Of a DNA stretch of 64,000 nucleotides, positions 36,165-59,107 are shown piece by piece (position 1 is the stretch's first letter; every line of letters starts with the position of its first letter). The notes under the pieces are model-generated. The model saw only the letters and a program-made list of their open reading frames with translations, did not search any database and was not told the origin of the DNA. This stretch comes from a virus. Position numbers and translations under genes: made by a program. The DNA lies in IMG/VR virus record IMGVR_UViG_3300025018_000101, positions 32,001 through 96,000 of that record; one strand, written 5' to 3'.

Positions 36165-37040
36165 ATGAACGGTGTCAACGACTGGATCGCACGCGTGGAG
36201 GCCGGCCGCCAGGCGCACCCCTCGGTGCTCATGAACCGGCCTCAGGGTCGCCGCGAGGACCCCGTCACATGGGGGGCCTCAACGCACTACGGCGACAACG
36301 CCCTGGGACGCAACGGCATGGGCGCGCGCAAGCAGGCGGCCGCGGAGGAAGCGGAGGAACCGAGCCGCTGGGCCGGCGCCTGGCGCGGGCTCAAGGGCGG
36401 CCTCCGTGGCGGCGCTCTCGCGGGGGGGCTCGCTGGCGCGGGCTCGGGTCTCGTCCACAGCATCGCCGAAGGAGACGCGGGGAGTGCTCCCGCCTACGCA
36501 CTGTTCGGTGGCCTCGGCAGCGGCATCGTTGGGGGTCTCGCAGGCATGGGATACGGGGCCATCCTGGGCGCGGGCTACCCGGACCCTGCCGCGGAGAAGG
36601 ACCTGCCGTGGTACAGGAGCCCCGCGGTCGCGGGTGCCGTGCTTGGGACGGGCATCGGAACCGCTCGGGGCGTGAAAGGGCTGCTCGACAAGAAGCATGA
36701 CTGGGGGGCCGCTGCCGAGGGCGCAGCACTGTCCGGCGCGATCGCCGCCGGCGCTGGCTTGGGCGTCAGTAAGGCCAACGAGCGCTACCTCGCCCAGCAG
36801 GCGGAGAAGTCTGCCTTCGTGGGCGCGGTCGCCCGCAAGCTCGTCTCCAGCCTCGGCGGGAGGGCCCTGGGGACTGCGGGCGCTCAGGGGGCCGCTGCCG
36901 TCGGCGAGGGCCTGGCGACCAAGGCGGCCCCGAGCCTGCTCCGCAAAGCCACCGCCCCCGTGCTCTCGGCCGCGTCGCTCGGCTCGTCCATGGCGACGAT
37001 GCGCCCGACGGCTGCCACCTTCGCTCCGGTGAAGTACTGA
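36165..37040 (+). CDS. Glycine-zipper, K-x-A-containing putative internal virion protein
   Basis: GGAGG RBS; repeated GxxxG hydrophobic segments; KQAA, KSAF. Confidence 0.7.
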   Translation: MNGVNDWIARVEAGRQAHPSVLMNRPQGRREDPVTWGASTHYGDNALGRNGMGARKQAAAEEAEEPSRWAGAWRGLKGGLRGGALAGGLAGAGSGLVHSIAEGDAGSAPAYALFGGLGSGIVGGLAGMGYGAILGAGYPDPAAEKDLPWYRSPAVAGAVLGTGIGTARGVKGLLDKKHDWGAAAEGAALSGAIAAGAGLGVSKANERYLAQQAEKSAFVGAVARKLVSSLGGRALGTAGAQGAAAVGEGLATKAAPSLLRKATAPVLSAASLGSSMATMRPTAATFAPVKY

Positions 37041-38863
37041 TGGCCACTCGCGACAACAACAAGCACACTACGCTCGGCCGTCTGCTCATCAACGACTCGC
37101 TGCCGCCGGAGCTCCGTACGGATGAGCAGCTCGGCAAGAAACAGATCAACCGCATCCTGTCCAGCGTGGCCAGGAACACGCCCGAGCAGTACGGCTCGGT
37201 CGCCCAGAACGTGAAGCGGTCGGGCGACTACGTTGCCACGCTGGCCGGGCTCAGCGTCGGCCTTGAGGACGTCGCCCCCCAGCGTGCACGACGCGACCCG
37301 ATCGTCAAAGACGCCCTCGGCCGCTTGCGCAAGGCCACGACGGACGCCCAACGGAGAGTCATCCTGTCGGAGGCGCAGGGCAAGATGATGAAGATCACGC
37401 CCGACCACCCATCGGACATGGCGCTGATGGCAGCCGCCGGCGGCCGCGGCTCCACGGCGCAGTTGATGCGCACGGTGGCCGCACCTGTCGCGGCCGCGGA
37501 CAAGAACGGGGCGCCCCTGCCGTGGCTGATTCAGCGGTCGTACTCCGAGGGGCTCAGACCGGATGAGTCCTGGGTGGCCGGGATCGAATCCCGCAACCTC
37601 GCCATCCAGACGAAGGAGTCCGTGCAGGAGCCCGGCGCGTTCGGCAAGGTCTTGATCGCCAACATGAGCGACATGGTCATCTCGTCGGAAGACTGCGGTA
37701 CCCGCAACGGCACCATCATGCACGTCTCCGACCCGCAGCTCGTCGACCGCGTCCTGGCCGCGGCCGCCGGTCCTGTTGCCGCCGGGACCATCGTCACCGC
37801 GCAGGTCGTCCGAGACCTGCGCAAGGCCGACGTCAAGGACGTCAAGGCCAGGACCCCCCTGACGTGCGAGATGGGCTCCGGCGTGTGCTCGGTATGTATG
37901 GGCGCCGACGAGTGGGGCAAATTGCCCCGTCTGAACACGAACGTCGGTGTCCGCGCCGCCCAGGCCATGAGCGAGCCCCTGACGCAGTTCGCCCTCTCCG
38001 CCAAGCACGGGGCGGGGACACTGAGTGGCGCCGGTAGGCCCTCCATGCAGGGCCTGACGGGCTTGAAGAACTTCCTCGACTTCCCGAAGTCGTTCTCTGA
38101 CCGAGCGATTCTGACGAGCCGGACCGGCGTGGTCACCCGCGTGGCCAAAGCCCCCCAGGGCGGGTGGTACGTCGACGTCGACCGCGTCGAGCACTACCTG
38201 TCGCCGCGGACGCCTCCGACGGTTCATCAGGGGCAGCACGTGGACGTCGGCGACGTACTGTCCGAGGGCGTCCCGACGCCAGACGACGTCGTACGGCTCA
38301 AGGATATGGGGGCAGGCCGGCAGCACGTCGCCGACGTCGTGCACGGCATCTACGCCGCCCAGGGGGCGAACCTTGACAAACGCCACATGGAGCTGCTCGC
38401 CAAGAGCCACCTGAACTGGGTGCGCGTAGTCGACGACCCCGACGGCGACCTGCTGCCGGGCGAGATCGTGCCTTACTCCTCGACGATGAGCCGCTACGGC
38501 GAGAGCAACACCGAGATGGCCGTGCAGGCCGCCACGGGCAAGGTCCTGTCCGTGCCAGCGCTTCAGTACACGGCAGGCACCACCCTGACGCCGCAGATCG
38601 TGGCGTCGCTCAAGGGTGGCGGTGTGTCGAAAGTGCGTGTATACAATGGGAACCTCAGGACTCGTCCTGTCGTCAAGTCCCTTACGCGGAGCCCGCTGCT
38701 CGATGCGCGCTGGATGAGGCGGCTCGGGCACCGGTACCTGAAGAAGTCTCTTGTCGAGGGAGCGGCTGCTGGCGATGAATCATCGATCCACGACACAGAC
38801 CCTATCGCCGCCTACGCTTACGGGGCGGAGTTCGGGGACAATCCCTCTGGCGTTGGCTATTGA
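37040..38863 (+). CDS. rpoC: RNA polymerase beta' C-terminal subunit
   Basis: TTLGRLLIN, GGRGS, SYSEGL, bridge-helix region ending EDCGT, Zn site C...CSVC, trigger loop AAQAMSEPLTQFALSAKHGAG. Confidence 0.9.
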   Translation: MATRDNNKHTTLGRLLINDSLPPELRTDEQLGKKQINRILSSVARNTPEQYGSVAQNVKRSGDYVATLAGLSVGLEDVAPQRARRDPIVKDALGRLRKATTDAQRRVILSEAQGKMMKITPDHPSDMALMAAAGGRGSTAQLMRTVAAPVAAADKNGAPLPWLIQRSYSEGLRPDESWVAGIESRNLAIQTKESVQEPGAFGKVLIANMSDMVISSEDCGTRNGTIMHVSDPQLVDRVLAAAAGPVAAGTIVTAQVVRDLRKADVKDVKARTPLTCEMGSGVCSVCMGADEWGKLPRLNTNVGVRAAQAMSEPLTQFALSAKHGAGTLSGAGRPSMQGLTGLKNFLDFPKSFSDRAILTSRTGVVTRVAKAPQGGWYVDVDRVEHYLSPRTPPTVHQGQHVDVGDVLSEGVPTPDDVVRLKDMGAGRQHVADVVHGIYAAQGANLDKRHMELLAKSHLNWVRVVDDPDGDLLPGEIVPYSSTMSRYGESNTEMAVQAATGKVLSVPALQYTAGTTLTPQIVASLKGGGVSKVRVYNGNLRTRPVVKSLTRSPLLDARWMRRLGHRYLKKSLVEGAAAGDESSIHDTDPIAAYAYGAEFGDNPSGVGY

Positions 38864-40371: not shown

Positions 40372-41460
40372 ATGAGCAGCCTCTCCCTGACCAAGATCGC
40401 CTTTGCCCGCGGCGTTGCCAATTACCTCCAGGTGAACGGTCTGACGCGCTTCCCTGACGAGGCCCACATCAAGGCGGCCTCGACGTACGTCGCCGAGCGC
40501 GTGATGCGGGCCGACCCTCTGGACACCGCGTACACCCCCACGGATGCGCAACGCGTCGCCGAGGGGGTCTACAAGGTGAGCCAGGCGTACGCCAGGACCG
40601 GCAAGGTCGCGGCCGCCGGTGCTCCCGTGGCCGCTATCCGGACCCACGACGCCGCCTACGGCGACCTCATCCGGTGGGCGTACAAGACCGCCATGGACGA
40701 GAGCGACAACGGCGGCGGTCTCGTGGCGACGAGCCCCGAGCAGAACTCGCCGGCGAACGCCTCGACGCTACTGGGTCAGATCGAGAACAGCGAGCGTCCC
40801 GAGGGCTATGCGACCGTCCCGATGGGTGGCGCGAACATCCAGGACACCCCGTCGTCGGCGATCATCGGCACCGAGATGCCCGCCCCGGGCCAGGACGCCG
40901 GTACCGTGGCCGGTGGCGCCACCAACTCGCTGCAGCAGGTCTCCGACAAGGAGGCCCGCGCGCGGGGTCGCGCTCCCCTGTCCAGCCTCGAGCGCCTGCT
41001 GCGGAAGGTGGCCGAGGGTGAGAGCGACAACGGAGGCGGTCTCGTGGCGACGAGCCCCGAGCAGAACTCGCCGGCGAACGCCTCGACGCTGCTGGGTCAG
41101 ATCGAGAACAGCGAGCGTCCCGAGGGCTATGCGACCGTCCCGATGGGTGGCGCGAACATCCAGGACACCCCGTCGTCGGCGATCCTCGGCACCGAGATGC
41201 CCGCCCCGGGCCAGGACGCCGGTACCGTGGCCGGTGGCGCCACCAACTCGCTGCAGCAGGTCTCCGACAAGGAGGCTGCTGATCGGCGCTTCCTGGCGCT
41301 CAGCGCTGAGATCCTCCCGTGGCTGCCGCGCAACCTGACGGCGGCCGAGAAGGTGGCCGAGTGCCAGGCGTACGTCAACGCGTCGCCGTCGGCGCGTCTG
41401 CTCCACCGGAGCCTGCGCGCTCAGGAGTCCAAGCAGGCCTCGGCGCGCTCGCAGTACTGA
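40372..41460 (+). CDS. K-x-A-rich head/core protein with an internal duplicated domain
   Basis: AGGAG RBS; 9 of 10 lysines are in K-x-A. Confidence 0.75.
   Translation: MSSLSLTKIAFARGVANYLQVNGLTRFPDEAHIKAASTYVAERVMRADPLDTAYTPTDAQRVAEGVYKVSQAYARTGKVAAAGAPVAAIRTHDAAYGDLIRWAYKTAMDESDNGGGLVATSPEQNSPANASTLLGQIENSERPEGYATVPMGGANIQDTPSSAIIGTEMPAPGQDAGTVAGGATNSLQQVSDKEARARGRAPLSSLERLLRKVAEGESDNGGGLVATSPEQNSPANASTLLGQIENSERPEGYATVPMGGANIQDTPSSAILGTEMPAPGQDAGTVAGGATNSLQQVSDKEAADRRFLALSAEILPWLPRNLTAAEKVAECQAYVNASPSARLLHRSLRAQESKQASARSQY
40699..41276 (+). repeat. 257-bp direct repeat (40699-40955, 41020-41276)
   Basis: Near-identical copies (about 3 substitutions), period 321 bp. Confidence 0.95.
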
Positions 41461-41540
41461 CGCGGCCAGGATCGGGCGACACTCACGGTTGATGAGGGCG
41501 TTGGCACCCGCTCGCGCCCTGGACCAGCAGGAGACCTACG

Positions 41541-44099
41541 ATGTCCTTCGGAACGCCCGCCCCCGCGCCCGTGGCTGCACCCGACCCGCAGACCCTGTTC
41601 AAGGAGCGCTTCGCGCAGATGGCGCACGACAACCTCGCGTCGCGTCTGCCCGACGTCTCCGACCGCATCTCGGCCTTCGAGGTGCTGGACGTGGACGAGA
41701 ACACGGGCCAGGCCGTGGGTGTCTTCGCCTTCACGGCGGGGAACTCCGAGGTGCACATCCCGGTCATCCTCTCCGGGATTCAGATCGAGCCCATCGATGT
41801 CATGTACCTGCCGGACTCCCGGCAGTGGCTGCCGCTGACCCCGAAGTGGGTGGAGTTCCTGGACTCCGTCGACGCGAACTACCTCGGCAACGCCCGCAAG
41901 GCGCCCACGGGCCTCCAGACGGACATGGACATCCGCAACGTCATGGTGCCGCCGATGACCGGGCGGTACAGTTACGCGTCGGCGAACGGCTGCCTGCTCG
42001 ACTATCTCCGCCGCGCCGGCAACCGTGCCCGCAAGCACGCGGTGGCCGTGATGACGGCTCGGCCTACCCTGGCCAAGCTGGCGTTTGACCTGTACGGCGT
42101 CGCGGAGCTCACCGAGGCGGTGCGGCACCGCGAGCCACCTCCTGCTGTCGAGAAGATCGCCTTCTACGACGGGGACTCCGACTGGGGTGAAATGGCGACG
42201 GCCTTCGGCCAGCACGCCCCGCGGGCGATGTCCCAACTGACAGCGCTCGGGTACGCGGTCCTTGACCGGCGGCCCCGGACGAAGACCGCGGTGTACGTCG
42301 AGACCCTGTCGCGCCGCATCACGCCGAACGAGCCCGGCGTCTACCGCCTCTATCTCAAGGACCGGAGGAGCCGCCTGGCGCTGATCATCCCCGCGCCTCA
42401 GGAGCTCTCCAGGACCACCCGGTACGGCACTACGCCTACGCGCGTGACGACCCCGCCCGTCGACATCTGGGAGACGCGTCCGACGTCTCCGTCGGAGAAC
42501 GTCACCTACCTCATCTACACGCAAGATGGGGAGGCCGAGCAGGTGCGAGGGCCGATTCTGGCGCGACCGGTCGAGCGCGAGGCGGCCAACGTGGCCGCCT
42601 GGCTGGCGGAGGTCTTCGCGCGCAACGACCCGCCAGCGCCTGGTCGAGGCACGTTCCTCCGCTTCAAGGACGGCCGTCTCCAGGCCACGACGCTGATCAA
42701 GATCGTGAACGTGTCCGACCTCGGCGACGGGGAGAAGCTCATCAAGGCATACTCGAACTCAGGCGGCCAGACCTACATCCGCATGGGGCCCTCGTACCGC
42801 TACAAGCAGATCTCGGTGATGTCGACGGGCGAAGGCGCGGACGTTTGGGGCGGCGGCGGCAGCGACAGTGCCGAGGTGCGCATCCCCGACACCTACTGCT
42901 GGGTACCTGTCAAGGACCTCGACGCCGCGCTCGTCGTGCGGACGGCCAACGACGTCGTAGGCGTCGCGGCGGCCGACCCGAAGATGGCCACAGCCGTGGT
43001 CGTGCGCGTCGTCCACAACGCCGGTTCGTACCGAGTCAACGGCTCTTCGGTCGGGTCCCGCGCGAAGGCCGCTCACGTCCTGCTCCGGGACTTCGGACTC
43101 TCGGTGGTGTCGGCCGAGAACATGCTCAAGCGCGCGGCGGTCGAAGGACAGGCCGAGGCAGCCGCGATGGACTCCGCCCAGCTCGCGGCCGGCGACCAGG
43201 CCGGTGTGGTCGGCGGCGACCCCGGCATGGACCCGTCGATGATGGACCCGGCCACGATGGATCCATCGATGATGGACCCCTCGATGACGGCGCCCGACCC
43301 GACGGCGATGGCGCTGCAGTCTGCTCAACAGGAGGTCATGACGCTGATCCAGATGCAGCAGCAGGAAGTGACGCGTCGCCTCGAGGAGCAGCAGCGCATC
43401 CTTGCGGCGCAGCAGGAGGCCATCGACCTGGTGATGCAGCGTAGCCAGGAGCTCCTCGGCGGTGCGCCACCGATGGACCCGCTGAGCGCGTCCATGATGT
43501 CGCAGCAGCTCACCGACCAGAACATGGCCCAGGCGCCCCCTGCGGGCCTGGGTGGCGGCGCGGCGTACGCTGACGCCGGACCTTCGCCTGAGCCGGTGCC
43601 TGAAGGGTCCTTGGCGGCCGGGGCTCCGACGCTCGGTGCTGGCGACGTCCCGGTCGGGCCCTCGACTGGCATGCCGTCAGGCATGCCCGCGGACATGGGC
43701 CCTGGCCAGCCGGCGGGCCTTGGTCCGAGCTCCGGCATGTCCCCCGTGCCCCCGAGCACGCCGGAGGATGTGGCTCAGGCCGCCCCCGGGGCGCTGGACG
43801 CGAGCATGCTCGCGTCCATGGCCACCAGCGAGGGCCTCGAGTCCCTCGGCGTGGACTACCTGCCGCAGCTCCGGGAGGCAGTGTCGATTCTGGCCCGCAC
43901 CTTGACGGACCTTCGCATCAAGGCTCCTACGCTGCGCGACCAGCTCGGCGACAGGGCCTACGAGGAGCAGGTCGAGCGCCTTCGACGGGGTCTCACGAAC
44001 CTCGGTCCTCTGACCCTGGACCTCCACAGGAACGCGCTGCTGTTCCGCGGCTCCGGCGCGACTGCCGGCGACCAGGACTCGGTGCACGACTCGGTGTAA
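41541..44099 (+). CDS. Large putative head/core protein
   Basis: AGGAG RBS; several K-x-A motifs; MDPSM repeats, Gln coil and Pro/Gly linker. Confidence 0.75.
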   Translation: MSFGTPAPAPVAAPDPQTLFKERFAQMAHDNLASRLPDVSDRISAFEVLDVDENTGQAVGVFAFTAGNSEVHIPVILSGIQIEPIDVMYLPDSRQWLPLTPKWVEFLDSVDANYLGNARKAPTGLQTDMDIRNVMVPPMTGRYSYASANGCLLDYLRRAGNRARKHAVAVMTARPTLAKLAFDLYGVAELTEAVRHREPPPAVEKIAFYDGDSDWGEMATAFGQHAPRAMSQLTALGYAVLDRRPRTKTAVYVETLSRRITPNEPGVYRLYLKDRRSRLALIIPAPQELSRTTRYGTTPTRVTTPPVDIWETRPTSPSENVTYLIYTQDGEAEQVRGPILARPVEREAANVAAWLAEVFARNDPPAPGRGTFLRFKDGRLQATTLIKIVNVSDLGDGEKLIKAYSNSGGQTYIRMGPSYRYKQISVMSTGEGADVWGGGGSDSAEVRIPDTYCWVPVKDLDAALVVRTANDVVGVAAADPKMATAVVVRVVHNAGSYRVNGSSVGSRAKAAHVLLRDFGLSVVSAENMLKRAAVEGQAEAAAMDSAQLAAGDQAGVVGGDPGMDPSMMDPATMDPSMMDPSMTAPDPTAMALQSAQQEVMTLIQMQQQEVTRRLEEQQRILAAQQEAIDLVMQRSQELLGGAPPMDPLSASMMSQQLTDQNMAQAPPAGLGGGAAYADAGPSPEPVPEGSLAAGAPTLGAGDVPVGPSTGMPSGMPADMGPGQPAGLGPSSGMSPVPPSTPEDVAQAAPGALDASMLASMATSEGLESLGVDYLPQLREAVSILARTLTDLRIKAPTLRDQLGDRAYEEQVERLRRGLTNLGPLTLDLHRNALLFRGSGATAGDQDSVHDSV

Positions 44100-44105
44100 G
44101 CTGGC

Positions 44106-44828: not shown

Positions 44829-44840
44829 AGGCACAGGTTC

Positions 44841-47017: not shown

Positions 47018-47020
47018 CCC

Positions 47021-48304: not shown

Positions 48305-48327
48305 GAGGCCCGTAAGGAGACCCGGAT

Positions 48328-49086: not shown

Positions 49087-49243
49087 TGGCGCACGACAAG
49101 GCCATCGAGTTCGGTCAGTACGCCCCGACAGGCGAGCCGTCGATGCAGGTCATCGACCGGCGCGACGTTGGCCTGCGGAAGTACGCCTCGGCCGAAGCCA
49201 TGGACAACGTCGGCCTCTGAGAGGCCCGTAAGGAGACCCGGAT

Positions 49244-50002: not shown

Positions 50003-51975
50003 TGGCGCACGACAAGGCCATCGAGTTCGGTCAGTACGCCCCGACAGGCGAGCCGTCGATGCAGGTCATCGACCGGCGCGACGTTGGCCTGCGGAAGTAC
50101 GCCTCGGCCGATGTGGAATCACTTGAGGTCTTGCGCACCGCGCCGTCCCTGCCCGGCCACACCATGGCGCTCGTCCTGGCGATGACCGCCTACGAGTTCT
50201 ACGGCTTCAACCGCAACGGCGACGGCTTCCACGAACGGAAGTACGACGCCACCCTCTGTGACGGTCGGCGCGTGACGCTCTGTACCGACGCCGAGTCCTT
50301 GCCTGCGTGGCACAAAACCTTCGAGACGGTCGGAAAGAACTTCTTGTTCCACGCCAACAAGGACCCGAGCAAGGCGGTCGGTCGCATCGCCCGGTCGATC
50401 TACAACTGGAAAATGCACCGCGTCGAGCTCATCGTAGCGGTCGACAACGGCCGAGCCGACAAGATCGTCCAGCGCTTGCGGGACCGCGAGTACCCAGCCG
50501 TCAGTATGGGCTGTAGGATACCCGCAGACGTGTGCGTATACTGCGGCAACCGGGCACCAACTCGCGCTCAGTACTGCATCCACGTCAGCGGCCACGACCC
50601 GCGCTACGGCCTCGGCACGATCCTGGACAGCGGCATCGAGATGGGTGTGCTCAACCCGTGCCCGGAGCTCTTCGACTTGTCGTGGGTGTGGAAGCCGGCC
50701 GATCGGGTGGCGTACACCATGCGGCACCTCGACGGGGTGGGAGCGGCCTCCGACTTGCTGAAGGCTGCTTCGGAGCGGCCGTACGCCATACGCCGCCCCG
50801 GGGCGGAAACCAAGGTGGCGTCCGTGACTCCCCGTACCTCGAAGGACCAGGAGCTCGACGCCGCCAAGTGCGCCGCGCTCAAGAAGCTGTCCGAGATCGA
50901 CAAGATGGTCGACGGCGAGCTCAGCGCAGCCCCTTACGCCGGCGGCACGCCGGCGGTCATGAAGGCGCTGGCGCAGTCATACGCGAAGGACTTCGAGCCT
51001 GTCGGTGACGACGTCATCGAGGAGATGGCCCGGCGTCCGCTCCGTGACAGCGTGGCGACGTTCTCGTCTATGGACATGTCGCCGTCGGCCGACGAGCTGC
51101 TCCGCCTCTTCTCTCACTGGTCCGGAGGTGGGTCGGACGACGTCCAGGCGGTTCCGGTGGGCTCCATCCGCAGGGTCATCCTCCGTGTGTTCGGCGACAG
51201 TCCCGACCTCGTGGACGTCTGTCAGGGCGCGGCCGGGGTGGGGGTGGGGGCGGCGCCGGGGGACGCGAGCTTGAAGCTCGCGAGCCTGCTCGCGCCGATG
51301 ATGGAGAAGCGCGCACTCGCTGGCGACCTCCTGATGCGCAAGTACGTCCCGGAGAACGCGGGGGTGTGGACGGGACTGGTCGGAGGGGACCCCGGAGCCG
51401 CGTACTACGGCCGGGCGCAGCAACCCCTGCACGCCACCGACCCCTCCACGGGGGACCGCTACGCCACGACGCGTAACGTCGCCGAGCAGACCGACTTGAA
51501 CAACGTCAAGCACAAGGCCCTCGAGGCCGGCGTCCTGGCGGGGGCCACGGGCATCGGCGTCGGCGCGATGAGTCTGATGGGCCGGAAGAACAAGGCGCTT
51601 CGCGTCGCGCGATGGCCGGTGGGAGCTGTCGGCATGGGCCTGGCGGGGTACGCTGGCCTGCGCAAGATCCCCGAGTTCAAGACCGACGAGGGCGTGTCGG
51701 TACCGCACAACACGCCCATGTCCAAGATGAGCGCAGCCGACACCGACGCCGGGCTGTACCTGATGGCAGCGGCCGCTGGCGGCCGGCGTCACTTCGCGTT
51801 TGAGAAGAGCGCGGAGGCGGAGCTCGACAGACTCCGTTCGCAACTTGTATACACGGACCCTTCGGGGTACTCACGTTTGCGTGCCTCGTCTTCGGAGTTC
51901 CTCTCGAAGGTGTCCGAGGCGCTTGTGCGAGCCGTGCGCCGCTGCGGGCTTGCGCCTTCGATTCGACCGACGTAG
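50002..51975 (+). CDS. Prohead maturation protease (HK97/assemblin-like) with Zn finger and C-terminal extension
   Basis: NRNGDGF, His motif FLFHANK, Ser motif VSMGC, CVYC...CIH, FDLSWVWKPAD (equivalent to E-v-S-x-V-x-x-PA); lies upstream of scaffold and capsid genes. Confidence 0.75.
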   Translation: MAHDKAIEFGQYAPTGEPSMQVIDRRDVGLRKYASADVESLEVLRTAPSLPGHTMALVLAMTAYEFYGFNRNGDGFHERKYDATLCDGRRVTLCTDAESLPAWHKTFETVGKNFLFHANKDPSKAVGRIARSIYNWKMHRVELIVAVDNGRADKIVQRLRDREYPAVSMGCRIPADVCVYCGNRAPTRAQYCIHVSGHDPRYGLGTILDSGIEMGVLNPCPELFDLSWVWKPADRVAYTMRHLDGVGAASDLLKAASERPYAIRRPGAETKVASVTPRTSKDQELDAAKCAALKKLSEIDKMVDGELSAAPYAGGTPAVMKALAQSYAKDFEPVGDDVIEEMARRPLRDSVATFSSMDMSPSADELLRLFSHWSGGGSDDVQAVPVGSIRRVILRVFGDSPDLVDVCQGAAGVGVGAAPGDASLKLASLLAPMMEKRALAGDLLMRKYVPENAGVWTGLVGGDPGAAYYGRAQQPLHATDPSTGDRYATTRNVAEQTDLNNVKHKALEAGVLAGATGIGVGAMSLMGRKNKALRVARWPVGAVGMGLAGYAGLRKIPEFKTDEGVSVPHNTPMSKMSAADTDAGLYLMAAAAGGRRHFAFEKSAEAELDRLRSQLVYTDPSGYSRLRASSSEFLSKVSEALVRAVRRCGLAPSIRPT

Positions 51976-51978
51976 AAT
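51950..51978 (+). promoter_or_regulatory. sigma70-like promoter of the capsid operon
   Basis: TTGCGC-17 nt-TAGAAT. Confidence 0.65.
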
Positions 51979-52015
51979 GCAACCCGATGCGGTCCAACCC
52001 GACCCAGGAGCGAGT

Positions 52016-52717
52016 ATGTCTAAGCAAATGACCATCGAGCAGGCCCTCTCGGCGCTTCAGGGCGCGTCCGACCCGAAGACGGCCGCGGCCCATACACCTG
52101 GGGCGGCCGGCAACAACGTCTACCAGGCGCAGGCCGCGGTGTCCGCGTCGGCGCAGAATCTCCAGAAGGTCGCGGGCGCTCCTGGCCTCCAGCAGGGCAG
52201 CGCCCAAGTGGACGCTGACGTCCTGCTCAAGATCGCCAGTCGCATCGCGGCCGCCGAGGAGCAGGCCATCGTCGCCGAGGGTTCCGCCCTTGGTGCGGCC
52301 ATCTTCGACGGCTTCATGAAGGCGGCCGGTTCGACCATCCACGCGGTGGACCAGCACGCGCCCCAGTACCGTCCGGCTCGCCAGCAGACGATCGACGACG
52401 TCGCTTACAAGGTGGCGTCGGCCTCGGCGGCCGACGCGTGGGACGTCATCGACGCGCTGCAGCCGCCGGCTCGCCAGCAGACGATCGACGACGTCGCTTA
52501 CAAGGTGGCGTCGGCCTCGGCGGCCGACGCGTGGCAGGCCCTCGACGCGCTCGGCGCTCCTTCCGAGAGTCGGGCCTACCAGATGAAGGTCGCGGCGGCT
52601 GAGCGGCAGGAGTTCTCGGAGGGTCTGGTGAGCGGTCTCGACAAGGTCGCCGAGTTCTGTGCGGCCGCGTTCGAGCAGGGCAACGAGCTGGCCGCGGCGG
52701 CGCTCGCTCCGCGCTAG
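52016..52717 (+). CDS. Scaffold/core-like protein, K-x-A-rich
   Basis: AGGAG RBS; 8 of 9 lysines are in K-x-A; 69-bp internal repeat (52373-441, 52466-534). Confidence 0.7.
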   Translation: MSKQMTIEQALSALQGASDPKTAAAHTPGAAGNNVYQAQAAVSASAQNLQKVAGAPGLQQGSAQVDADVLLKIASRIAAAEEQAIVAEGSALGAAIFDGFMKAAGSTIHAVDQHAPQYRPARQQTIDDVAYKVASASAADAWDVIDALQPPARQQTIDDVAYKVASASAADAWQALDALGAPSESRAYQMKVAAAERQEFSEGLVSGLDKVAEFCAAAFEQGNELAAAALAPR

Positions 52718-52728
52718 AGGGTACGTGC

Positions 52729-53160
52729 ATGTCGTCCGCCCTCCACATCCTGACGGTGGTCGCGCCTCAGGCGCACAATCGTTTCGAGCTCCGCTCCAAA
52801 GTGGCGAACGAGCTCGGCCATGAGATAGGCGCCGTGGCGAACCACTGGGCGGCGCGAGCTGGCCTGGCGGGTCTCGGCGCTACGGGTCTGGGCCTGGGTG
52901 CGTACCATTTCGGGGCGTCGAGGGAGCGCAAACGCAATGCGGAGGCGCTCCGGTCTGAGCAGGAGAAGGCTCAGCAGGAGAAGCTGCTGGCCTTCGGCGG
53001 AGGTCTGGCGGCGGGCATGGCAGGGCCTCGCCTCAACGGGGCCACACGCGGCCTTGTCCACAGGTCGACAGCTCCCACGCTGAACGACCTCGACTACGCG
53101 TACGGCGACTACAATCAGGCACCGCCGGGTCCCGTGCCTGAGTACGGAGGCATGTCATGA
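52729..53160 (+). CDS. Small Gly-rich putative internal protein
   Basis: GAGG RBS; two Gly-rich hydrophobic segments. Confidence 0.65.
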   Translation: MSSALHILTVVAPQAHNRFELRSKVANELGHEIGAVANHWAARAGLAGLGATGLGLGAYHFGASRERKRNAEALRSEQEKAQQEKLLAFGGGLAAGMAGPRLNGATRGLVHRSTAPTLNDLDYAYGDYNQAPPGPVPEYGGMS

Positions 53161-53378
53161 CGACTCGAAGGGAGTCCGCATTGCTTGAAGCGTTTGACGC
53201 GGCGCGACAGCGCCTGGCGTCCGCGGAGGCGCAGGAGAAGCAGGCTTCGTCGTCGGGCCAGCCCGAGGACGTGGCGGCCGCTCTGGAGGCTGTGGCCGGC
53301 GGTCTCCGCCACGAGAAGGCAGCTTCGGTGAAGGTGCCTCTCCTGGGCGTCGTCATCTGCGCGGAGGTGCTCCCGTGA
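53157..53378 (+). CDS. Small K-x-A protein
   Basis: ATGA overlap; KQAS, KAAS. Confidence 0.6.
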   Translation: MTTRRESALLEAFDAARQRLASAEAQEKQASSSGQPEDVAAALEAVAGGLRHEKAASVKVPLLGVVICAEVLP

Positions 53379-53548
53379 GCCAACAGCAGCCCAGCTCGGT
53401 TGCGGACGTAATGCTCAAGACAGCGGAGGCGATGCGTGAACGTGCCCGCCTCTTGCGCGCGGGCGACAATCAGCGTACTGTCAAGGTCGCGAAGGCACTC
53501 CGGGCCCTCGGGCACTTGAACAACTCCCTCCGGGAGGGCCAGCGATGA
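53375..53548 (+). CDS. 57-aa K-x-A protein (absent from the ORF track)
   Basis: GGAGG RBS; GTGA and ATGA overlaps at both ends; MSQQQPSSVADVMLKTAEAM...VKVAKAL. Confidence 0.65.
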   Translation: MSQQQPSSVADVMLKTAEAMRERARLLRAGDNQRTVKVAKALRALGHLNNSLREGQR

Positions 53549-53937
53549 TCATCCTCGACACCCCCGAAGCCCTGGAAGCGGCTGCGGACCTCCTTGAGAA
53601 GTCCGCGGCGTACGTCCGGCAGCTCGAGGCGTCCGTCATCGCGCGCTCCCAGACTGAGGCGTCGGAACGTCAGTCCAAGGAAGCGGCGGATCAGGCGGCC
53701 CTCGCCCTTCGCCTGTCGTCCGTGCTCGGCAACGTCTTTGACGCCGAGAAGGTCGCCCGCGACCTCGCTCAGCTCGCGCCGTCCGTCCGCGCTGTCTACG
53801 AGGACCTGGTCGAGAAGGCGTCCGCTGCGTCTGATCAGCTCGGGGGCCCTCGTACGAACGAACGCTACACCGCCCCGACCGCTGAGCAAGAGTTCGATGC
53901 CTATCTCGCGCGCATGGCGCGGGAGTCCCACTACTGA
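53545..53937 (+). CDS. Coiled-coil scaffold-like protein
   Basis: Helical; KSAA, KEAA, KVAR; upstream of the capsid genes. Confidence 0.6.
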   Translation: MIILDTPEALEAAADLLEKSAAYVRQLEASVIARSQTEASERQSKEAADQAALALRLSSVLGNVFDAEKVARDLAQLAPSVRAVYEDLVEKASAASDQLGGPRTNERYTAPTAEQEFDAYLARMARESHY

Positions 53938-53957
53938 CCCTGACAGGGAGACCGACC

Positions 53958-54485
53958 ATGTCCATTCTCGACCCCCAGGAGCACTACGACATCATCTTCG
54001 GCGGCGGCAGCCCCGAGGATTCGGCGAGCTTCCTCCAGGACTACACGCCGGCGACCGGCGTCGAGCTCACCATCGGCGACGTCGTCGAGGTCGTCTCGGA
54101 GGGCGGCTTGCCGCGCGTCTCGAAGCTGACCTACGCGGCCTTCGTGAGCGCGTGCGCTGGCGGTGCGACGCCGACGGCGGCGCAGGCCGACACCGCCATC
54201 ATGGCGGCGTGGGACGCCCTCATGGCCAAGAAGCGCGCCCTCGTCGTGTGGGAGGGCAACTCCGAACTGGAGGGTGGTTACCTCGCGAACACCGTCACCA
54301 CGATCTTCGGGTCGTACGTCATGGAGACGACCAACTTCGCCGCGGGCGTCTACGCGCCGGGCGTGAAGGTCAGCGTGGCGTCCGGCGCGGTCAAGGTCAA
54401 GGCGACCGGTGAGCCGACCTTCGGCGAGGTCGTGGCGTACGACTCCACGGCGGCGGTGTTGACCGTCGCCGTCCCTGGTCTGTAA
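53958..54485 (+). CDS. Capsid decoration/cement-like protein
   Basis: Beta-rich, 175 aa, immediately before the MCP. Confidence 0.55.
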   Translation: MSILDPQEHYDIIFGGGSPEDSASFLQDYTPATGVELTIGDVVEVVSEGGLPRVSKLTYAAFVSACAGGATPTAAQADTAIMAAWDALMAKKRALVVWEGNSELEGGYLANTVTTIFGSYVMETTNFAAGVYAPGVKVSVASGAVKVKATGEPTFGEVVAYDSTAAVLTVAVPGL

Positions 54486-54565: not shown

Positions 54566-55507
54566 ATGAGCATGGGCGGTTACCAGGGGTACCAGACCGA
54601 GACCCCGAAGATCAGCGAGGCCCAACTGGCGGCGACGTGGCTTGGCCTCCTCGACGGCGGTCCTCACCAGAAGGAGGCGTCCGAGAGGACCAACTCCTTC
54701 ATCCGCGACAAGATGCGCGAGAAGTCGTTCGCGCGCCTCATCCTGACTCCGCAGACGCTGGGCGACGAGGAGGTCGACCGCCGGGTCGAGAGCGATCTCC
54801 CGATCAAGATCGTCGAGAAGGAGCCGGACTCCCGCGCGACGTTCGTGACGTTCAAGGGCGCGGGCCCTCGCGCCTGGATCAAGGGTCAGCGGTACGCGGT
54901 GCACTTCGGCTACATCTCCAGCCAGCGGTGGCGGAAGAACAAGCTCGAACTGATGACCTCGCGCACCGACCTGAAGGAGCTCCTGGCGGACAACGCCGTC
55001 AAGGACTGCGCCGCCCAGGAGGATGGCAAGTTCCTCGAGACGGCGCTGGAGATCACGGCGGCCGCGGCGGCCACCCAGGTCATCAACTTCACGTCCCGCC
55101 TGTCGAAGGACGGGATCGTGTCCGGCATCCAGGCGATGCTGGCGAACCAGATCCCCGCCGGGGTGATGCTGTGCACGCAGCAGCTTTGGTGGGACCTCGC
55201 GCGTCTCCAGGCCAACAACATCGGCGACCCGGCGACGGACCGCCTGTGGCAGAACGGCGTGGAGAAGACCGAACTGTTCGGGATGCGCTGCATCACGACG
55301 ATCAAGAACGACATCGTCGACCCGAACGACCTCTGGATCTTCGCGCCCGAGCAGTACCTGGGGAACTTCTTCCTCCTCCAGGACGCCACCTTGTTCATCA
55401 AGCAGGAGGGCCCCGAGATCATGTTCTACGTGTACGAAGCCCCGGGTATCGGCTTCGGCAACACCAAGGGCATCATCCGGATCCGCTTCAACCGCGCCGT
55501 GGCGTAA
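54566..55507 (+). CDS. Major capsid protein
   Basis: AGGAG RBS; strong codon bias; 313 aa; position after protease, scaffold and decoration genes; HK97-like C-terminus FYVYEAPGIGFGNTKGIIRI. Confidence 0.75.
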   Translation: MSMGGYQGYQTETPKISEAQLAATWLGLLDGGPHQKEASERTNSFIRDKMREKSFARLILTPQTLGDEEVDRRVESDLPIKIVEKEPDSRATFVTFKGAGPRAWIKGQRYAVHFGYISSQRWRKNKLELMTSRTDLKELLADNAVKDCAAQEDGKFLETALEITAAAAATQVINFTSRLSKDGIVSGIQAMLANQIPAGVMLCTQQLWWDLARLQANNIGDPATDRLWQNGVEKTELFGMRCITTIKNDIVDPNDLWIFAPEQYLGNFFLLQDATLFIKQEGPEIMFYVYEAPGIGFGNTKGIIRIRFNRAVA

Positions 55508-55541
55508 TCCGTCCTGGGCGTGCCACGATCAACAACGCGTG

Positions 55542-55570: not shown

Positions 55571-55581
55571 TTGGAGGACGC

Positions 55582-56331
55582 ATGCACAAGTACATCGAGA
55601 ATCGCCTGCAGGGCGCGCTCAGCCTCACCATCCGGGCCATGGACCGTTCTGGCATCGACCGCGAGGTCGAGCTTACGCTCGGGTCACGGAACACGGTCTC
55701 GGCCCTGGCGCGCCTGGACGCGGTGCTGGCCGATACGCCGACCGTCCGCAACCTCGCCGTGCTCGGGAGGGTTCGCGTGATGAACGACGAAGCCGGTGCT
55801 CAGCGCCTGGCGGAGCTGAGCGCACCGCAGGCTGTCCCAGGGCGCGGGCGCGGGGCTGCGCCTGCCGTATGGGAGGCCGAGAAGGCCGAGCTCACGGGCG
55901 TCGTCCGGACGCAGGGGACCCGGCTCACCGAGCTCCAGGCCGAAGTGGCACGCCTGTCGGAGGCGCTCGCGGAGAAGTCTGACGCCTTGAGGTCCCTGAC
56001 CGAGGCTCCGACGAGGCCCGAGACCGAGCCCGCGCCCGAGCCCGCGCCCGAGCCCGAGCCCGAGCCTGCGCCTGCGCCTGCGCCTGCGCCTGCGCCTGAG
56101 CCCGCGCCTCCCCTGTACACCCCGGTCGTGGACGACCGGCCCGACCCTGCCGCGGCGGCCGCGGCAACCACGCGCCCGTCCTGGGCCGTGACCCCCGAGG
56201 AGTTCAAGCAGTTGTCGATGGCTGAGATGCGCGCCATGGCGGCCGAGCACGACATCGACATCCCGCTCGGCAGTAAGGCTGCGGCCTCCGAGGGCTACGA
56301 CGCCTGGTACGGCCCGCGAGGCCAGGCGTAG
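55582..56331 (+). CDS. Hypothetical protein with (PE/PA)n linker and small C-terminal helical domain
   Basis: GGAGG RBS; coiled coil; C-terminal LSMAEMRAMAAEHDIDIP is Rho-N/HeH-like. Confidence 0.65.
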   Translation: MHKYIENRLQGALSLTIRAMDRSGIDREVELTLGSRNTVSALARLDAVLADTPTVRNLAVLGRVRVMNDEAGAQRLAELSAPQAVPGRGRGAAPAVWEAEKAELTGVVRTQGTRLTELQAEVARLSEALAEKSDALRSLTEAPTRPETEPAPEPAPEPEPEPAPAPAPAPAPEPAPPLYTPVVDDRPDPAAAAAATTRPSWAVTPEEFKQLSMAEMRAMAAEHDIDIPLGSKAAASEGYDAWYGPRGQA

Positions 56332-56385
56332 ACATCTCGGCGGGGGCGTGTCACACTGGTGCAGGTCTCTTGCCTGGAGCCGCCC

Positions 56386-56979
56386 ATGCCCGTCATGAGA
56401 ATCGCAGCGCTCGACAGCGTGAACCACCCTGGCGTGTCCTACCGCCTGACGGTGTACCGCCCCTCCGACGGGCTGTACCTGGACTTCGATGACGCCACGT
56501 TCAAGGCGTTCGTCGCCGTGGTGACGTCGTACCAGGCACTGCTCGAGGTCGCGGAGGCGCCGGGCGTCTGGGAGGTCGACTGGATGATTGAGGCTGGGAC
56601 GACGGACATCGTCGAGCTCTACGTCCACCAGACGCCGACGACGGAGCTCCACTCAGTCCGCAGTGTGGCGTTCAGCGCCGGCGAGCCCCTGGTCGACCTC
56701 GTACGACCAGAGGTCCTGCTCGGGACGCACTTCCGGTCGTTCGGTGCCTACCAGGTGGTGGACACGTCGGGCACGGCCGTGCAGGATGCCGTTGTCCGTG
56801 TATACGTGGCCGACGACTACAACGCGGACGCTGAGTCGGCGGTGCCTGTCGGCATGACGACCACCGACGCAGACGGATACTGGCTGGCTCCCGTCCCCGT
56901 GTCTGCGGGCCAGACGTACGTCATCCACGTCCACAAGCCCGCGGTCGTCGGCCCGGTCGCGACGACCGTGACGGTCTAG
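56386..56979 (+). CDS. Ig/transthyretin-like beta virion protein
   Basis: GGAG RBS; VQDAVVRVY...TTTDADGYW motif. Confidence 0.6.
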   Translation: MPVMRIAALDSVNHPGVSYRLTVYRPSDGLYLDFDDATFKAFVAVVTSYQALLEVAEAPGVWEVDWMIEAGTTDIVELYVHQTPTTELHSVRSVAFSAGEPLVDLVRPEVLLGTHFRSFGAYQVVDTSGTAVQDAVVRVYVADDYNADAESAVPVGMTTTDADGYWLAPVPVSAGQTYVIHVHKPAVVGPVATTVTV

Positions 56980-56989
56980 GGGGTAGCGC

Positions 56990-57475
56990 ATGCCCATCAC
57001 CGCACCCACGCTGGAACTCCCGGCCACGCTGCTGGCCGAGATCACCATCGCCGTCCAGGCGCTCCTCATGGACTACGGCCCGCGGAACAACCTCCTCCGC
57101 GTGCCGGAATTCGCGCCGTCGGACTACGCCGCGGCCGCAGTCCAAGTGCTGCGCGAGTTCAACCACGCCCCGCCGCAGCACATCCGGGCCACTTCCTTCG
57201 AGGAGGTGCCCGAGTACGTCCAGGTTGTCGGCACCGCGAAGTGGCTCCTGTTCGCGGCGATGACGAACAAGCTCCGCAACGCGGTGCAGATCTCTTCTGA
57301 CGACGACGAGGTCATCGGCCTCGACTCGCAGGGCCCCGCGTACCAGGGCTTGTTCGGGCAGCTCAGCCAGATGGCCGACAAGGCCGTCACGGACTACAAG
57401 ATCCAGCTCAACCTCAACAGCGCCTACGGCGGGATGGGATCGGGCTACGCGTACACCCTCAGGTCGAGGAACTAG
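56990..57475 (+). CDS. Head-tail adaptor (neck) protein candidate
   Basis: Helical, 161 aa; position downstream of the MCP. Confidence 0.5.
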   Translation: MPITAPTLELPATLLAEITIAVQALLMDYGPRNNLLRVPEFAPSDYAAAAVQVLREFNHAPPQHIRATSFEEVPEYVQVVGTAKWLLFAAMTNKLRNAVQISSDDDEVIGLDSQGPAYQGLFGQLSQMADKAVTDYKIQLNLNSAYGGMGSGYAYTLRSRN

Positions 57476-57478
57476 GAC

Positions 57479-58018
57479 ATGAGCATCGGTACCTTCAAGG
57501 CGACGGTCGGCGGCAACTTCGTGGAGCATCGCCTGGACAGCGGCCAGCAGTTCACCGGCGTGAAGTTCCCGCAGGGCGTGGGCGACAACGACATCTACGG
57601 CGCCACGGCGGGCATCACTCCGGTGCAGGAGGGCTTCATCTACCCGAAGCCCCTCGATGCGCTCGGGGCCCCCGCCGACGGCATGGGCCTGTTCGAACTC
57701 CTCGAGTTCTTCGGGTCGGACGCGCGTGCTCTCTCCGCCGTCTACGCCCACATCCGCGTGGCCGCCGGCGTGTCGTGGTCACTCTACCTGACGGACGGCC
57801 TCGGCGACGGCGACCCGGACACCACGGTTGATGACCCGACGTACGACGCTCTGCTGGCGTCGGGCACAGGGACGAGCATCATCTACGTGATGCGGCCGAT
57901 CACGCCCACGTCGTACATCCGCTTCAAGACCGACGCTGCCGTCGGTGTGGACGACGCCTACTGTCGCATCTGGTTCGCGGGCATCCTCTACGGTGCGTGG
58001 GGCTCACTGGCCCCGTAG
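57479..58018 (+). CDS. Hypothetical virion protein
   Basis: Operon context and codon usage. Confidence 0.65.
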   Translation: MSIGTFKATVGGNFVEHRLDSGQQFTGVKFPQGVGDNDIYGATAGITPVQEGFIYPKPLDALGAPADGMGLFELLEFFGSDARALSAVYAHIRVAAGVSWSLYLTDGLGDGDPDTTVDDPTYDALLASGTGTSIIYVMRPITPTSYIRFKTDAAVGVDDAYCRIWFAGILYGAWGSLAP

Positions 58019-58025
58019 GACGGAC

Positions 58026-58421
58026 ATGATCAAGCTGTCGGCCCCATCATCCTACATGAACCCCCGCATCACCGACCGGGACCTCCTGGTGCCCTACACC
58101 GAGCGGGGGGTCCGCGTCGCGGCATGGTGGAAGCAGGCAAGCGCGTCGAGCAAGGGCGCGATGCTCGACGTAGCCTCCCTGCTCCCGGGCGACGACCGCC
58201 TCATGAAGGCTGCCCACTACGTCCGGTGCGCGAGGGGCGATGCTCGGCGGGCCGCGGGGCTCGTGAAGGCTGCCGTGGCGCGAGCCGGTGCCCGGGAGTG
58301 CGACGACCACCTCGACCCGGAGGTCATCTCCGTGGAAGTGGACGACGACGACGACGACATCCATCGTGCAGATATGATGGGCGACGCCGACCCCGACGAG
58401 TACGAGGAGGACTACCCGTGA
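58026..58421 (+). CDS. K-x-A protein with acidic tail
   Basis: AGGA RBS; KQAS, KAAH, KAAV. Confidence 0.6.
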   Translation: MIKLSAPSSYMNPRITDRDLLVPYTERGVRVAAWWKQASASSKGAMLDVASLLPGDDRLMKAAHYVRCARGDARRAAGLVKAAVARAGARECDDHLDPEVISVEVDDDDDDIHRADMMGDADPDEYEEDYP

Positions 58422-59107
58422 CAGGATGGACCCCGCCGCCATCGGACCCGTACGAGGAGGCGTACCGCCGGGCCGCTATAGAGGACTTCATGGTAGCGTC
58501 CCCCGGCCCCGCGCCTCCCCCGCGGCACCCGTCCGCCCGGGAGTCGGCCGATGAAGTCGTGGCTCCCGCCAGGCGGGTGATGCGAACCGTCAAGCTGCTC
58601 GGGAAGCTCGGGGAGCATGCGGGCGGGTTCTCGGGCGACGTGCAGTTTGACATGGACAGGGCGCACGAGTTGCTCCGGGAGTCCGGGTCTGGACCGTCCG
58701 TCAACTCGTGGCGCAACGACGAGAACTCTCCCGCGTTCACCCAGCGCATGGTGCCCGGTGACACGAGCTCGAACATGGACACGTCGAGGGCAGCCCGCAC
58801 CGCGATCTCGCAGGGGTTTGACCTCGACGCCGATGGCGTGGATGTCTCGAAGACGGCGAGCTGGCGCAGGGGGTACGCGGCCGCGATGGCGGTGGCGTTC
58901 GGCAAGCTGGCCGATACGATGTCGGACCCGCTACGTGCGGGCACCGACGACCTCCGCCGGGGCGACGGGAGTGAAGAGCCGCTCGTCCCGGACCGCCGTG
59001 TAGTGGCCAACCCCAACACGCGGATGAGCACGTCACAGGCCCTGCGCAGCATCGACAACACGCCCTCGTGCAGTGACGACCCTCCCATCGAAGAGCCACT
59101 GCCGTAG
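58418..59107 (+). CDS. K-x-A protein
   Basis: GTGA overlap with GGAGG RBS; KTAS, KLAD. Confidence 0.6.
   Translation: MTGWTPPPSDPYEEAYRRAAIEDFMVASPGPAPPPRHPSARESADEVVAPARRVMRTVKLLGKLGEHAGGFSGDVQFDMDRAHELLRESGSGPSVNSWRNDENSPAFTQRMVPGDTSSNMDTSRAARTAISQGFDLDADGVDVSKTASWRRGYAAAMAVAFGKLADTMSDPLRAGTDDLRRGDGSEEPLVPDRRVVANPNTRMSTSQALRSIDNTPSCSDDPPIEEPLP

Follow-up and report, generated by a model that had tools for sequence, protein, structure and literature searches.

Organization of the head genes

The window analyzed here, a stretch of 64,000 nucleotides, belongs to the 155-kb genome of an uncultured phage with 69% GC and a proteome of 13.5% Ala and 2.9% Lys. Genes were called with GC3/codon guidance, K-x-A was counted per protein, and window positions 40372-54000 are referred to as the head block. 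The features considered are the following:

5787-6824, + strand: K-x-A-rich protein of 345 aa, close to the terminase cluster and not part of the head block
40372-41460, + strand: 362-aa protein with two 107-aa repeat units
41541-44099, + strand: 852-aa protein with two clusters of K-x-A sites (residues 165-248 and 481-530); 7/18 Lys in the motif (p 0.005)
44841-45761, + strand: 306-aa protein; 7/14 Lys in K-x-A
48328-49086 and 49244-50002, + strand: two identical 252-aa glycine-zipper proteins; 2/4 Lys in K-x-A in each
50002-51975, + strand: prohead protease, 657 aa, with an N-terminal core and a C-terminal extension of ~400 aa
50095-50103, + strand: candidate N-terminal autoprocessing site K32-Y-A34
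50350-50676, + strand: candidate catalytic residues H117, S168 and D225 and a Cys/His cluster, invariant in 115 orthologues
50761-50820, + strand: candidate release sites K254-A-A256 and K271-V-A273, just after the protease core
52016-52717, + strand: scaffold-like protein, 233 aa, directly 3′ of the protease; eight K-x-A sites, 19-31 residues apart
53157-53378, 53375-53545 and 53545-53937, + strand: small ORFs between scaffold and capsid protein; 2/3, 2/3 and 3/4 Lys in K-x-A
54566-55507, + strand: major capsid protein (MCP), 313 aa; phrog_2522 'major head protein', E 5e-7
54671-54679, + strand: candidate MCP maturation site K36-E-A38, which would take off a 38-residue N-terminal propeptide
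58026-59107, + strand: ORFs 58026-58421 and 58418/58580-59107; 4/5 and 2/4 Lys in K-x-A

The MCP profile also matched the phage G capsid protein (6wkk, E 2.5e-4), and 596 MCP homologues and 258 protease homologues were found. Residues 113-202 of the protease matched phrog_18299, 'head maturation protease' (E 1.7e-7); Pfam returned no family for the whole ORF at E 0.01. Most head-region ORFs remain unnamed by PHROGs and Pfam, and the two ORFs at 58026-59107 have no PHROGs family match.

A 93-nt tandem repeat (52373-52551) in the scaffold-like ORF carries one site per copy. A 321-nt tandem repeat (40690-40955 and 41011-41276, 97% identity) lies within the 40372 gene, where sites at residues 105, 193, 212 and 300 bracket both repeat units. 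The glycine-zipper pair stems from a perfect tandem duplication, and in each copy the Gly-rich core lies between K13-T-A15 and K236-E-A238.

Enrichment of K-x-A in the head block

An unbiased scan that covered every pair of residues at offsets 1-4 placed lysine followed by alanine at +2 first in the head block (z 7.7), with 56 occurrences observed versus 20.8 expected. Lysines lay in K-x-A in 44% of cases (56/128) in the block versus 13.6% (165/1217) elsewhere (Fisher p 8e-15). A sequence-only reading of this DNA had first pointed to the motif and had named correction for Ala content as the way to check it; the enrichment remains when per-protein Ala is taken into account. Its counts of 8 of 9 lysines in the scaffold-like protein (26% Ala, binomial p 1.5e-4) and 9 of 10 in the 40372 protein (p 8e-7) were reproduced exactly, as was recurrence in the protease (8/31 Lys) and in the proteins starting at 41541, 44841, 48328, 53157, 53375, 53545, 58026 and 58418. 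The motif likewise recurs in the 5787 protein, for which the reading gave eight occurrences and we count 9 of 14 lysines (p 1.4e-4). It was also right that DNA polymerase (9/62 Lys), primase (4/49), large terminase (0/19) and the putative sheath (3/16) are unenriched. Its statement that the motif saturates the head proteome holds as to enrichment but was too strong as to saturation, since the mature MCP and several head-region proteins are unenriched; the proteins without enrichment are the mature MCP, those at 45761, 47021, 52729, 53958 and 55582-58018, and the RNA polymerase pieces.

An Ala-rich, Lys-poor proteome of high GC, in which the most enriched proteins contain 17-26% Ala, might be expected to produce such a pattern by composition or chance, or the pattern might reflect a motif in the DNA. 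Both readings are refuted, and we give them next to no weight: the signal survives Ala correction, is particular to Lys rather than Arg (R-x-A, 14.8%, is not enriched) and to offset +2, and recurs in relatives of 44-65% GC. Codons for Ala and Lys in the motif match genome usage, and the middle position draws on 26 different codons; the signal therefore lies in the protein and not in the DNA.

The same spaced-pair scan, applied as a positive control to T4 gp67, gp68, gp21 and gp22, recovered I..E and L..E at +2, which is the known (L/I)-x-E motif of gp21. In the head block [LI]-x-E occurs at 3.7% versus 5.4% Glu and is thus unenriched, and A-x-E and [SAG]-x-E are likewise at or below Glu frequency, figures that speak to motif enrichment and not to cleavage.

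Recurrence of the motif in related phages

No relative came from a blastn search of phage records with the head region or from a related-loci search with the single protease sequence, while the MCP alignment yielded 42 distinct viral contigs from IMG/VR (GC 44-65%). A search with the scaffold-like protein against 1.8 billion representatives gave only 5 matches, so ORFs were matched by synteny. Lysine with alanine at +2 was the top pair in 36 of the 42 loci (z 4.2-8.4). In the ORF that follows the protease, 432 of 532 lysines (81%) lie in K-x-A. The proportion is 51% when every ORF lying between protease and MCP is counted, and it is 11% for the region 3′ of the MCP and 7% for the MCP itself. 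A like pattern was seen in loci L002-L004, the cultured Salmonella phage Arash and Vibrio phage D69 (44% GC), which share with the 42 IMG/VR loci the gene order protease, scaffold-like protein, small ORFs and MCP. In the Bxz1-like phage Cali K-x-A is not among the top pairs, and in phage G the protease itself is enriched and no other protein is, so it is for the clade defined by the MCP alone that the saturated code is shown.

The sites also show positional conservation. Those of the scaffold-like protein align across orthologues despite diverged flanks. Orthologues of the 44841 protein have 8/14, 11/17 and 8/17 lysines in K-x-A (10/21 in Arash gp220), and their first site (around residue 31) is kept in all five proteins compared. 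For the 5787 protein, six homologues (28-33% identity) have 9-14 sites apiece; many of these sites align, with the middle residue free. No homologue of it was detected in Arash or D69. The MCP site, located correctly near residue 36 by the earlier reading and followed by Ser (K36-E-A38-S), is K-x-A in 119 of 120 MCP homologues; among the 2490 other lysines of these proteins, just 48 form the motif (1.9%, versus 7.3% Ala). Because sites align in diverged orthologues of the 52016, 44841 and 5787 proteins with the middle residue free, and because the MCP site is almost invariant while the motif is rare elsewhere in that protein, the sites are likely under purifying selection. The AF2 model of the MCP (pLDDT 58) was too poor for locating K36-E-A38 on the fold.

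Just beyond the window, after the putative sheath gene and hence outside the head block, lies another K-x-A-rich protein (64268-64942), with zero homologues in the related loci compared; its position counts against the cleavage reading put forward below.

Fold and candidate processing sites of the protease

An AF2 model of protease residues 1-300 shows a core at residues 38-243 with block-mean pLDDT mostly >90. Foldseek of this model against the PDB gave no significant match, and phmmer and profile searches of PDB sequences did not retrieve T4 gp21 (5jbl). VIA-align ranked gp21 first among structures (Z 10.0; 129 residues with rmsd 2.8) and herpesvirus assemblin second (VZV 1vzv, Z 9.2; HCMV 6.6; KSHV 6.1), with unrelated structures at ≤6.5. 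Judged from the model, the protease ORF shares the fold of the gp21/assemblin capsid maturation proteases (clan SH).

The serine of the SMG motif singled out by the sequence-only reading is S168 (codon 50503-50505, motif V-S-M-G), invariant in 115 orthologues, as is H117 (50350-50352); the two stand in the catalytic His-Ser order, and S168 lines up with gp21 S140 in a core-profile alignment of weak score. For the third residue, H194 and D225 (50674-50676) are each invariant in the 115 orthologues. H194 possibly belongs to an inserted cluster, C178/C181/C192/H194 (50533-50583), that is equally invariant. A herpes-like Ser-His-His triad through H194 was considered and reduced to standing no better than D225, because gp21 V-D-A-V...P-D-A resembles D225...P-A-D234 here and because the extra residues form the Cys/His cluster. 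From sequence comparison, the T4-like candidate D225 is at least as likely.

Two near-invariant K-x-A sites flank the conserved core, both in low-confidence stretches of the model. K32-Y-A34 (K-x-A in 112/115 orthologues) sits on the margin of the stretch 22-33 and precedes the first helix (38-46), and column 254 (K-x-A in 108/115; K254-A-A256-S here) lies with the K271 site inside the linker 246-277.

K-x-A as a predicted cleavage motif

We propose that the phage's own gp21/assemblin-fold prohead protease recognizes and cleaves K-x-A, a prediction that we consider probable. The sequence-only reading had inferred that the protease cleaves at K-x-A and had also named the motif a candidate packaging code. 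Indirect support for the cleavage comes from the specificity for Lys and for +2, the siting around the protease gene, the conservation of aligned sites in orthologues that evolve fast, the near-invariant MCP site, the sites on either side of the protease core in stretches modelled as disordered, and the protease fold; the part of the claim that put the motif in all head-region proteins did not stand. If the proposal is correct, the following would take place inside the assembled prohead. The protease would free its own core (approximately residues 35-256) by cuts at K32-x-A34 and K254-x-A256; the scaffold-like protein would be chopped into pieces of ~19-31 residues, small enough to exit the shell; the capsid protein would lose its 38-residue N-terminal propeptide; and the 40372, 41541, 44841, 5787 and glycine-zipper proteins and the small ORFs preceding the MCP would be trimmed or divided.

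Given cleavage, analogy with known proteases somewhat favors a cut after Ala, with Lys at P3, Ala at P1 and Ser/Ala at P1′. The typical form is K-[T/V/L/I/E]-A-[S/A], often with Leu two residues before Lys, and in the related loci S/A is enriched directly after the motif Ala. The same protease might instead cut after Lys, at L-x-K followed by x-A, with a hydrophobic P3, Lys at P1 and Ala at P2′. Such a cut would be T4-like, (L/I)-x-E being cleaved in T4 (PMC5694885), and the head-block ORFs of the 42 loci show a 2.1-fold enrichment of Leu at -2 relative to Lys. However, information around Lys is maximal at +2 (KL 0.50) and much lower at -2 (KL 0.16), and the invariant MCP site has R, Q or H, not Leu, at -2. 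The two strongest positions are spaced like P3 and P1 of the T4 and SPN3US motifs, and S/A after Ala parallels the Ser preferred at P1′ in SPN3US (PMC10052503). We therefore regard a cut after Lys as unlikely.

Alternatively, K-x-A might not be cleaved, serving as a docking or incorporation motif for the shell interior, portal or protease, or as a scaffold-type structural repeat. T4 internal proteins do bear targeting leaders (PMC5694885). In addition, Arash gp223, which is scaffold-like, was detected at 100% coverage in a virion preparation (Arash proteomics paper), which is unexpected if the protein is fully degraded and expelled. That preparation may not have been clean, because 116 of its proteins were termed 'structural'; gp218, the counterpart by position of the 41541 protein, was also detected in it. 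Weighing against docking, in ~94% or more of 115 orthologues the protease core has sites precisely at its borders, within disordered linkers; single proteins carry up to 9 sites, which bracket repeat units; the MCP N-terminus has a near-invariant site and the rest of the MCP almost none; and Arg never substitutes for Lys at conserved sites. As to a structural repeat, Ala around Lys is flat at +1, -1 and -2 and only slightly raised at +3 (×1.3) in 183 head-block ORFs of related loci. Helical periodicity is ruled out by these flat offsets and by the flat Arg. The i/i+2 pattern differs from a helical repeat and would fit a peptide bound in extended form. An uncleaved role thus seems to us improbable, and cleavage by the prohead protease is the reading we prefer.

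In the literature we found no K-x-A or Lys-x-Ala prohead cleavage motif, no report of proteolysis, mature N-termini or semi-specific peptides for members of the clade, and no mature N-termini for the capsids of Myrna and phage G; neither a protease nor cleavage is mentioned in the proteomics paper on Arash virions.

Comparison with known capsid maturation proteases

The background given in the sequence-only reading is sound: the prohead proteases of T4 and phiKZ, and likewise that of SPN3US, recognize x-x-E and cleave on the C-terminal side of the Glu (PMC5694885, PMC10052503). T4 gp21 (MEROPS S77) acts on gp22, gp67, gp68, gp23, gp24 and internal proteins. As here, the T4 gene order is protease, scaffold, MCP, and the scaffold and core proteins are saturated with the motif, and one statistic finds both systems; the MCP here would lose an N-terminal propeptide in T4-like fashion. 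Unlike T4, where (L/I)-x-E is cut after Glu, K-x-A is the enriched motif here, and the protease differs from gp21 in its length and its ~400-aa extension and in the Cys/Cys/Cys/His insertion, the gp21 sequence being without Cys. Among sequence models, PHROG 18299 was the sole match, and none assigned the protease to S77.

The S80 proteases phiKZ gp175 and SPN3US gp245, with the motifs (S/A/G)-x-E and A-x-E, also use a three-residue motif in many head proteins. Their phages have extra sites within propeptides, C-terminal protease autocleavage (in both SPN3US and phiKZ; PMC5694885) and a preference for Ser at P1′, and specificity in the T4 and SPN3US motifs is determined by P3 and P1 (PMC10052503). 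They too encode a multisubunit RNA polymerase beside the head genes. They differ from the phage described here in that P1 is Glu, whereas Lys and Ala form the invariant pair here. Two further differences are the small size of the MCP here (313 aa) and a genome below the 200-kb jumbo-phage threshold.

Herpesvirus assemblin (S21) has release and maturation sites of the form (V/L/I)-x-A followed by Ser. As here, the protease domain is the N-terminal part of a larger protein and is directly followed by a conserved site; a further likeness is the Ala followed by Ser/Ala. Assemblin differs in its hydrophobic P3, which is Lys here, and in its Ser-His-His triad, for which D225 or H194 is the candidate third residue here. 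The HK97 gp4-type proteases (S78) belong to the same fold clan and have the role proposed for the protease here, the maturation of a capsid protein of HK97 fold, although the protease here has no Pfam match at the threshold used; we know of no saturated short motif described for HK97 substrates.

Evolutionary implications

We tentatively suggest, as something a little short of an even call, that the gp21-fold proteases with V-S-M-G-C and an inserted CxxC...CxH (this clade, Arash, D69, Bacillus phage G and the Bxz1-like mycobacteriophages) form one widespread lineage, of which at least this clade switched from cutting after Glu to Lys-x-Ala before Ser/Ala, with an assemblin-like P1. The motif would then be a universal punctuation, with repeats and glycine-zipper modules as duplicable or swappable cassettes, and sequence alone could show which head proteins are processed in hundreds of uncultured phages. 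The experimentally defined T4-type prohead protease motifs found in the literature all cut after Glu; a Lys-x-Ala code, if true, would be a new specificity class in a clan common to tailed phages and herpesviruses. It would flag scaffold, core and processed internal proteins that now lack any family match, in a clade that is large and uncultured, with contigs up to ~200 kb among the MCP relatives. Arash, the Vibrio phages D69, D181 and D148 and possibly phage G are in culture, making the prediction directly testable, and the sites might serve for fusing cargo to be released inside capsids.

Results

Lysines in the head proteins of this phage lie unusually often in K-x-A (lysine, any residue, alanine). 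The window spans bases 32001-96000 of an IMG/VR viral contig (155,236 bp, about 69% GC, completeness rated at about 88%), which carries 163 genes, called over its whole length by a codon-usage score. PHROG and Pfam comparison found no family for most head-region ORFs other than those listed.

Recognisable genes in the window
12012-13673, large terminase
30438-36149, RNA polymerase beta plus beta'-N fusion, 1903 aa
37040-38863, RNA polymerase beta' C-terminal piece
50002-51975, head maturation protease
54566-55507, major capsid protein (MCP)
within the window, DNA polymerase, primase and a helicase

Genome-wide, 16.4% of lysines are in K-x-A and alanine frequency is 13.5%. A sequence-only reading had proposed that the motif saturates the head proteins, and the check for alanine content upheld an enrichment, for which 'saturates' is too strong a word: 44% of lysines (56/128) are in K-x-A in the head block (40372-54000), versus 13.6% elsewhere (Fisher p = 8e-15). 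Its per-protein counts were reproduced on recount with small differences only, as were the motif near MCP residue 36 (K36-E-A38-S) and the lack of enrichment in DNA polymerase, primase, terminase and probable sheath. Enrichment is also absent from both RNA polymerase pieces.

Lysines in K-x-A, by protein (ORFs named by window start)
52016 (scaffold-like protein, directly after the protease), 8/9
40372, 9/10
5787, 9/14
41541, 7/18
44841, 7/14
50002-51975 (protease), 8/31
58026, 4/5
53545, 3/4

When every residue pair at offsets 1-4 was scanned, with expected values computed per protein, lysine with alanine at +2 ranked first (z 7.7) and lysine with serine at +3 ranked third, while R-x-A, Q-x-A and E-x-A stayed at background level. 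As a positive control, the same scan of T4 gp67, gp68, gp21 and gp22 returned I..E and L..E at +2 as top pairs; this is the experimentally known I/L-x-E motif of gp21 (PMC5694885), which indicates that the statistic detects real protease codes. A motif at the DNA level was ruled out, because the alanine and lysine codons at K-x-A sites are used as in the genome at large and the middle codon takes 26 different forms.

The pattern extends to related phages. MCP homologues number 596, mostly at 44-52% identity, the longest of their contigs measuring about 200 kb. Three related contigs (GC 53-60%) keep both gene order and enrichment: K-x-A holds 10/11, 10/10 and 11/15 of the lysines in the ORF that follows the protease, and 8/14, 11/17 and 8/17 in the 44841 orthologue. 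Across 42 distinct IMG/VR loci (GC 44-65%), the motif accounts for 81% of lysines in the ORF that follows the protease and for 51% over the whole set of ORFs separating protease and MCP; its share is 28% for the 10 kb upstream, 7% for MCP itself and 11% downstream. Lysine-alanine at +2 ranks first among pairs at 36 of the 42. Information around lysine is maximal at +2 (Ala), followed by +1 (T, L, V), -2 (Leu) and +3 (Ser, Ala); none of it was seen in proteins encoded downstream. Two cultured, more distant relatives share the pattern: Salmonella phage Arash (MCP 36% identical; gp220 10/21, gp223 8/16, gp225 7/13) and Vibrio phage D69 (44% GC), where the same pair is again on top (z 6.8). The saturated code was not seen in Cali, a Bxz1-like mycobacteriophage, and in phage G enrichment is confined to the protease itself.

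Individual sites are also conserved. Alignment of the scaffold-like protein family, and likewise of the 44841 and 5787 families (the last at 28-33% identity), places K-x-A sites in common columns, with variable middle residues and flanks. The N-terminal K-x-A is present in 119/120 MCPs; only 1.9% of the remaining MCP lysines are in the motif versus 7.3% alanine, a depletion that is weak evidence given the relatedness of the sequences. In the protease, K-x-A occupies residues 32-34 in 112/115 orthologues and residues 254-256 in 108/115, the two sites bracketing the conserved core. Residues 1-300 were modelled with AF2 from 61 sequences; the model has a confident core at 38-243 and low confidence for 22-33 and 246-277, stretches at or within which the flanking sites lie.

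A structural search independent of Foldseek ranked T4 gp21 first for this model (Z 10.0) and VZV protease second (Z 9.2), followed by the HCMV and KSHV proteases. Invariant in the 115 orthologues are H117, S168 (in V-S-M-G), D225 and D234, together with a C178/C181/C192/H194 cluster (50533-50583) inserted between the catalytic serine and the next conserved strand. This cluster resembles a metal-binding insertion, possibly a zinc knuckle; T4 gp21 lacks it, but Cali gp93 has it, as does phage G gp19.

Discussion

In T4, phiKZ and SPN3US, a three-residue motif marks where the prohead protease cuts many of the head proteins; the scaffold is degraded, MCP trimmed and the protease's own C-terminus cleaved (PMC5694885, PMC10052503). 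The K-x-A evidence fits this logic, although the motif differs from the x-x-E of those phages and the T4-type pattern is not enriched here. From the analogous P3/P1 spacing and the preference for serine at P1', we infer a cut after the alanine, which would resemble herpes assemblin sites; that the cut instead follows the lysine of the motif seems less probable. In Arash gp226, a cut after the alanine of L-V-K-E-A would leave a mature N-terminus at G30. No report of the K-x-A motif was found in the literature searched. The Arash proteomics preparation speaks neither for nor against processing, because its 116 'structural' proteins include the scaffold-like gp223 with full coverage.

Distant homologues of the protease domain occur in 229 phage records, mostly of Bxz1-like mycobacteriophages. 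Cali gp93 (L089 8974-12834, 1286 aa), labelled 'tape measure' in the record note, has an N-terminus homologous to the protease core at 29.5% identity; it carries both the V-S-M-G and the CxxC...CxH signature, and its gene directly precedes that of the major head protein. Some orthologues, each longer than 1000 aa, contain Pfam domains of intein or LAGLIDADG type (P0212, P0214, P0223, P0226, P0236), which indicates that inteins interrupt the protease gene in related phages.

A perfect tandem duplication at 48279-50111 (917 identical bases, offset 916), which could be recent or an assembly artefact, produces a pair of identical glycine-zipper ORFs of 252 aa each. The duplicated stretch includes the first ~36 protease codons, so that the 44-aa ORF at 49086-49220 repeats the protease N-terminus in truncated form. 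In-frame tandem repeats occur in the 40372 protein (321 nt, 97% identity, within 40690-41276), where K-x-A sites bound each unit, and in the scaffold-like protein (93 nt, 95% identity, 52373-52551), where one site lies inside each copy. Copy number varies in the latter, since a database variant (P0248, 202 aa) lacks one repeat and is otherwise identical. Gly/Ala-rich GxxxG-type segments, with K-x-A sites at their edges, dominate the products of 36165-37040, 47021-48304, 48328-50002 and contig 96268-96942 (L092), one such protein being encoded after the putative sheath gene; in the head block, glycine pairs at +4 reach z 6.1. These proteins may act on membranes as internal or ejection proteins.

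The multisubunit-type RNA polymerase genes (30438-38863) lie directly upstream of the head genes, the 1903-aa fusion joining beta (Rpb2 domain 6) to an N-terminal beta' portion (Rpb1 domains 1-2). Because the corresponding Arash proteins rank among the most abundant in virion preparations, this enzyme may be a virion RNA polymerase. Residues 689-761 weakly match LAGLIDADG, which points to an insertion of homing-endonuclease or intein-like type. The 969-aa protein at 61307-64000 (the ORF runs to 64216) has no PHROG or Pfam match; tail sheath clusters were nearest in a protein-language-model search, with a score of 0.91 that serves as a lead only. Outside the window, an 834-aa ORF (L090, contig 20045-22549) that is not K-x-A-enriched (5/57 lysines) combines a NUDIX domain (210-272) with a sigma-70 region 3 match (707-745), and carries K-x-A at 371 and 588, between the two domains.
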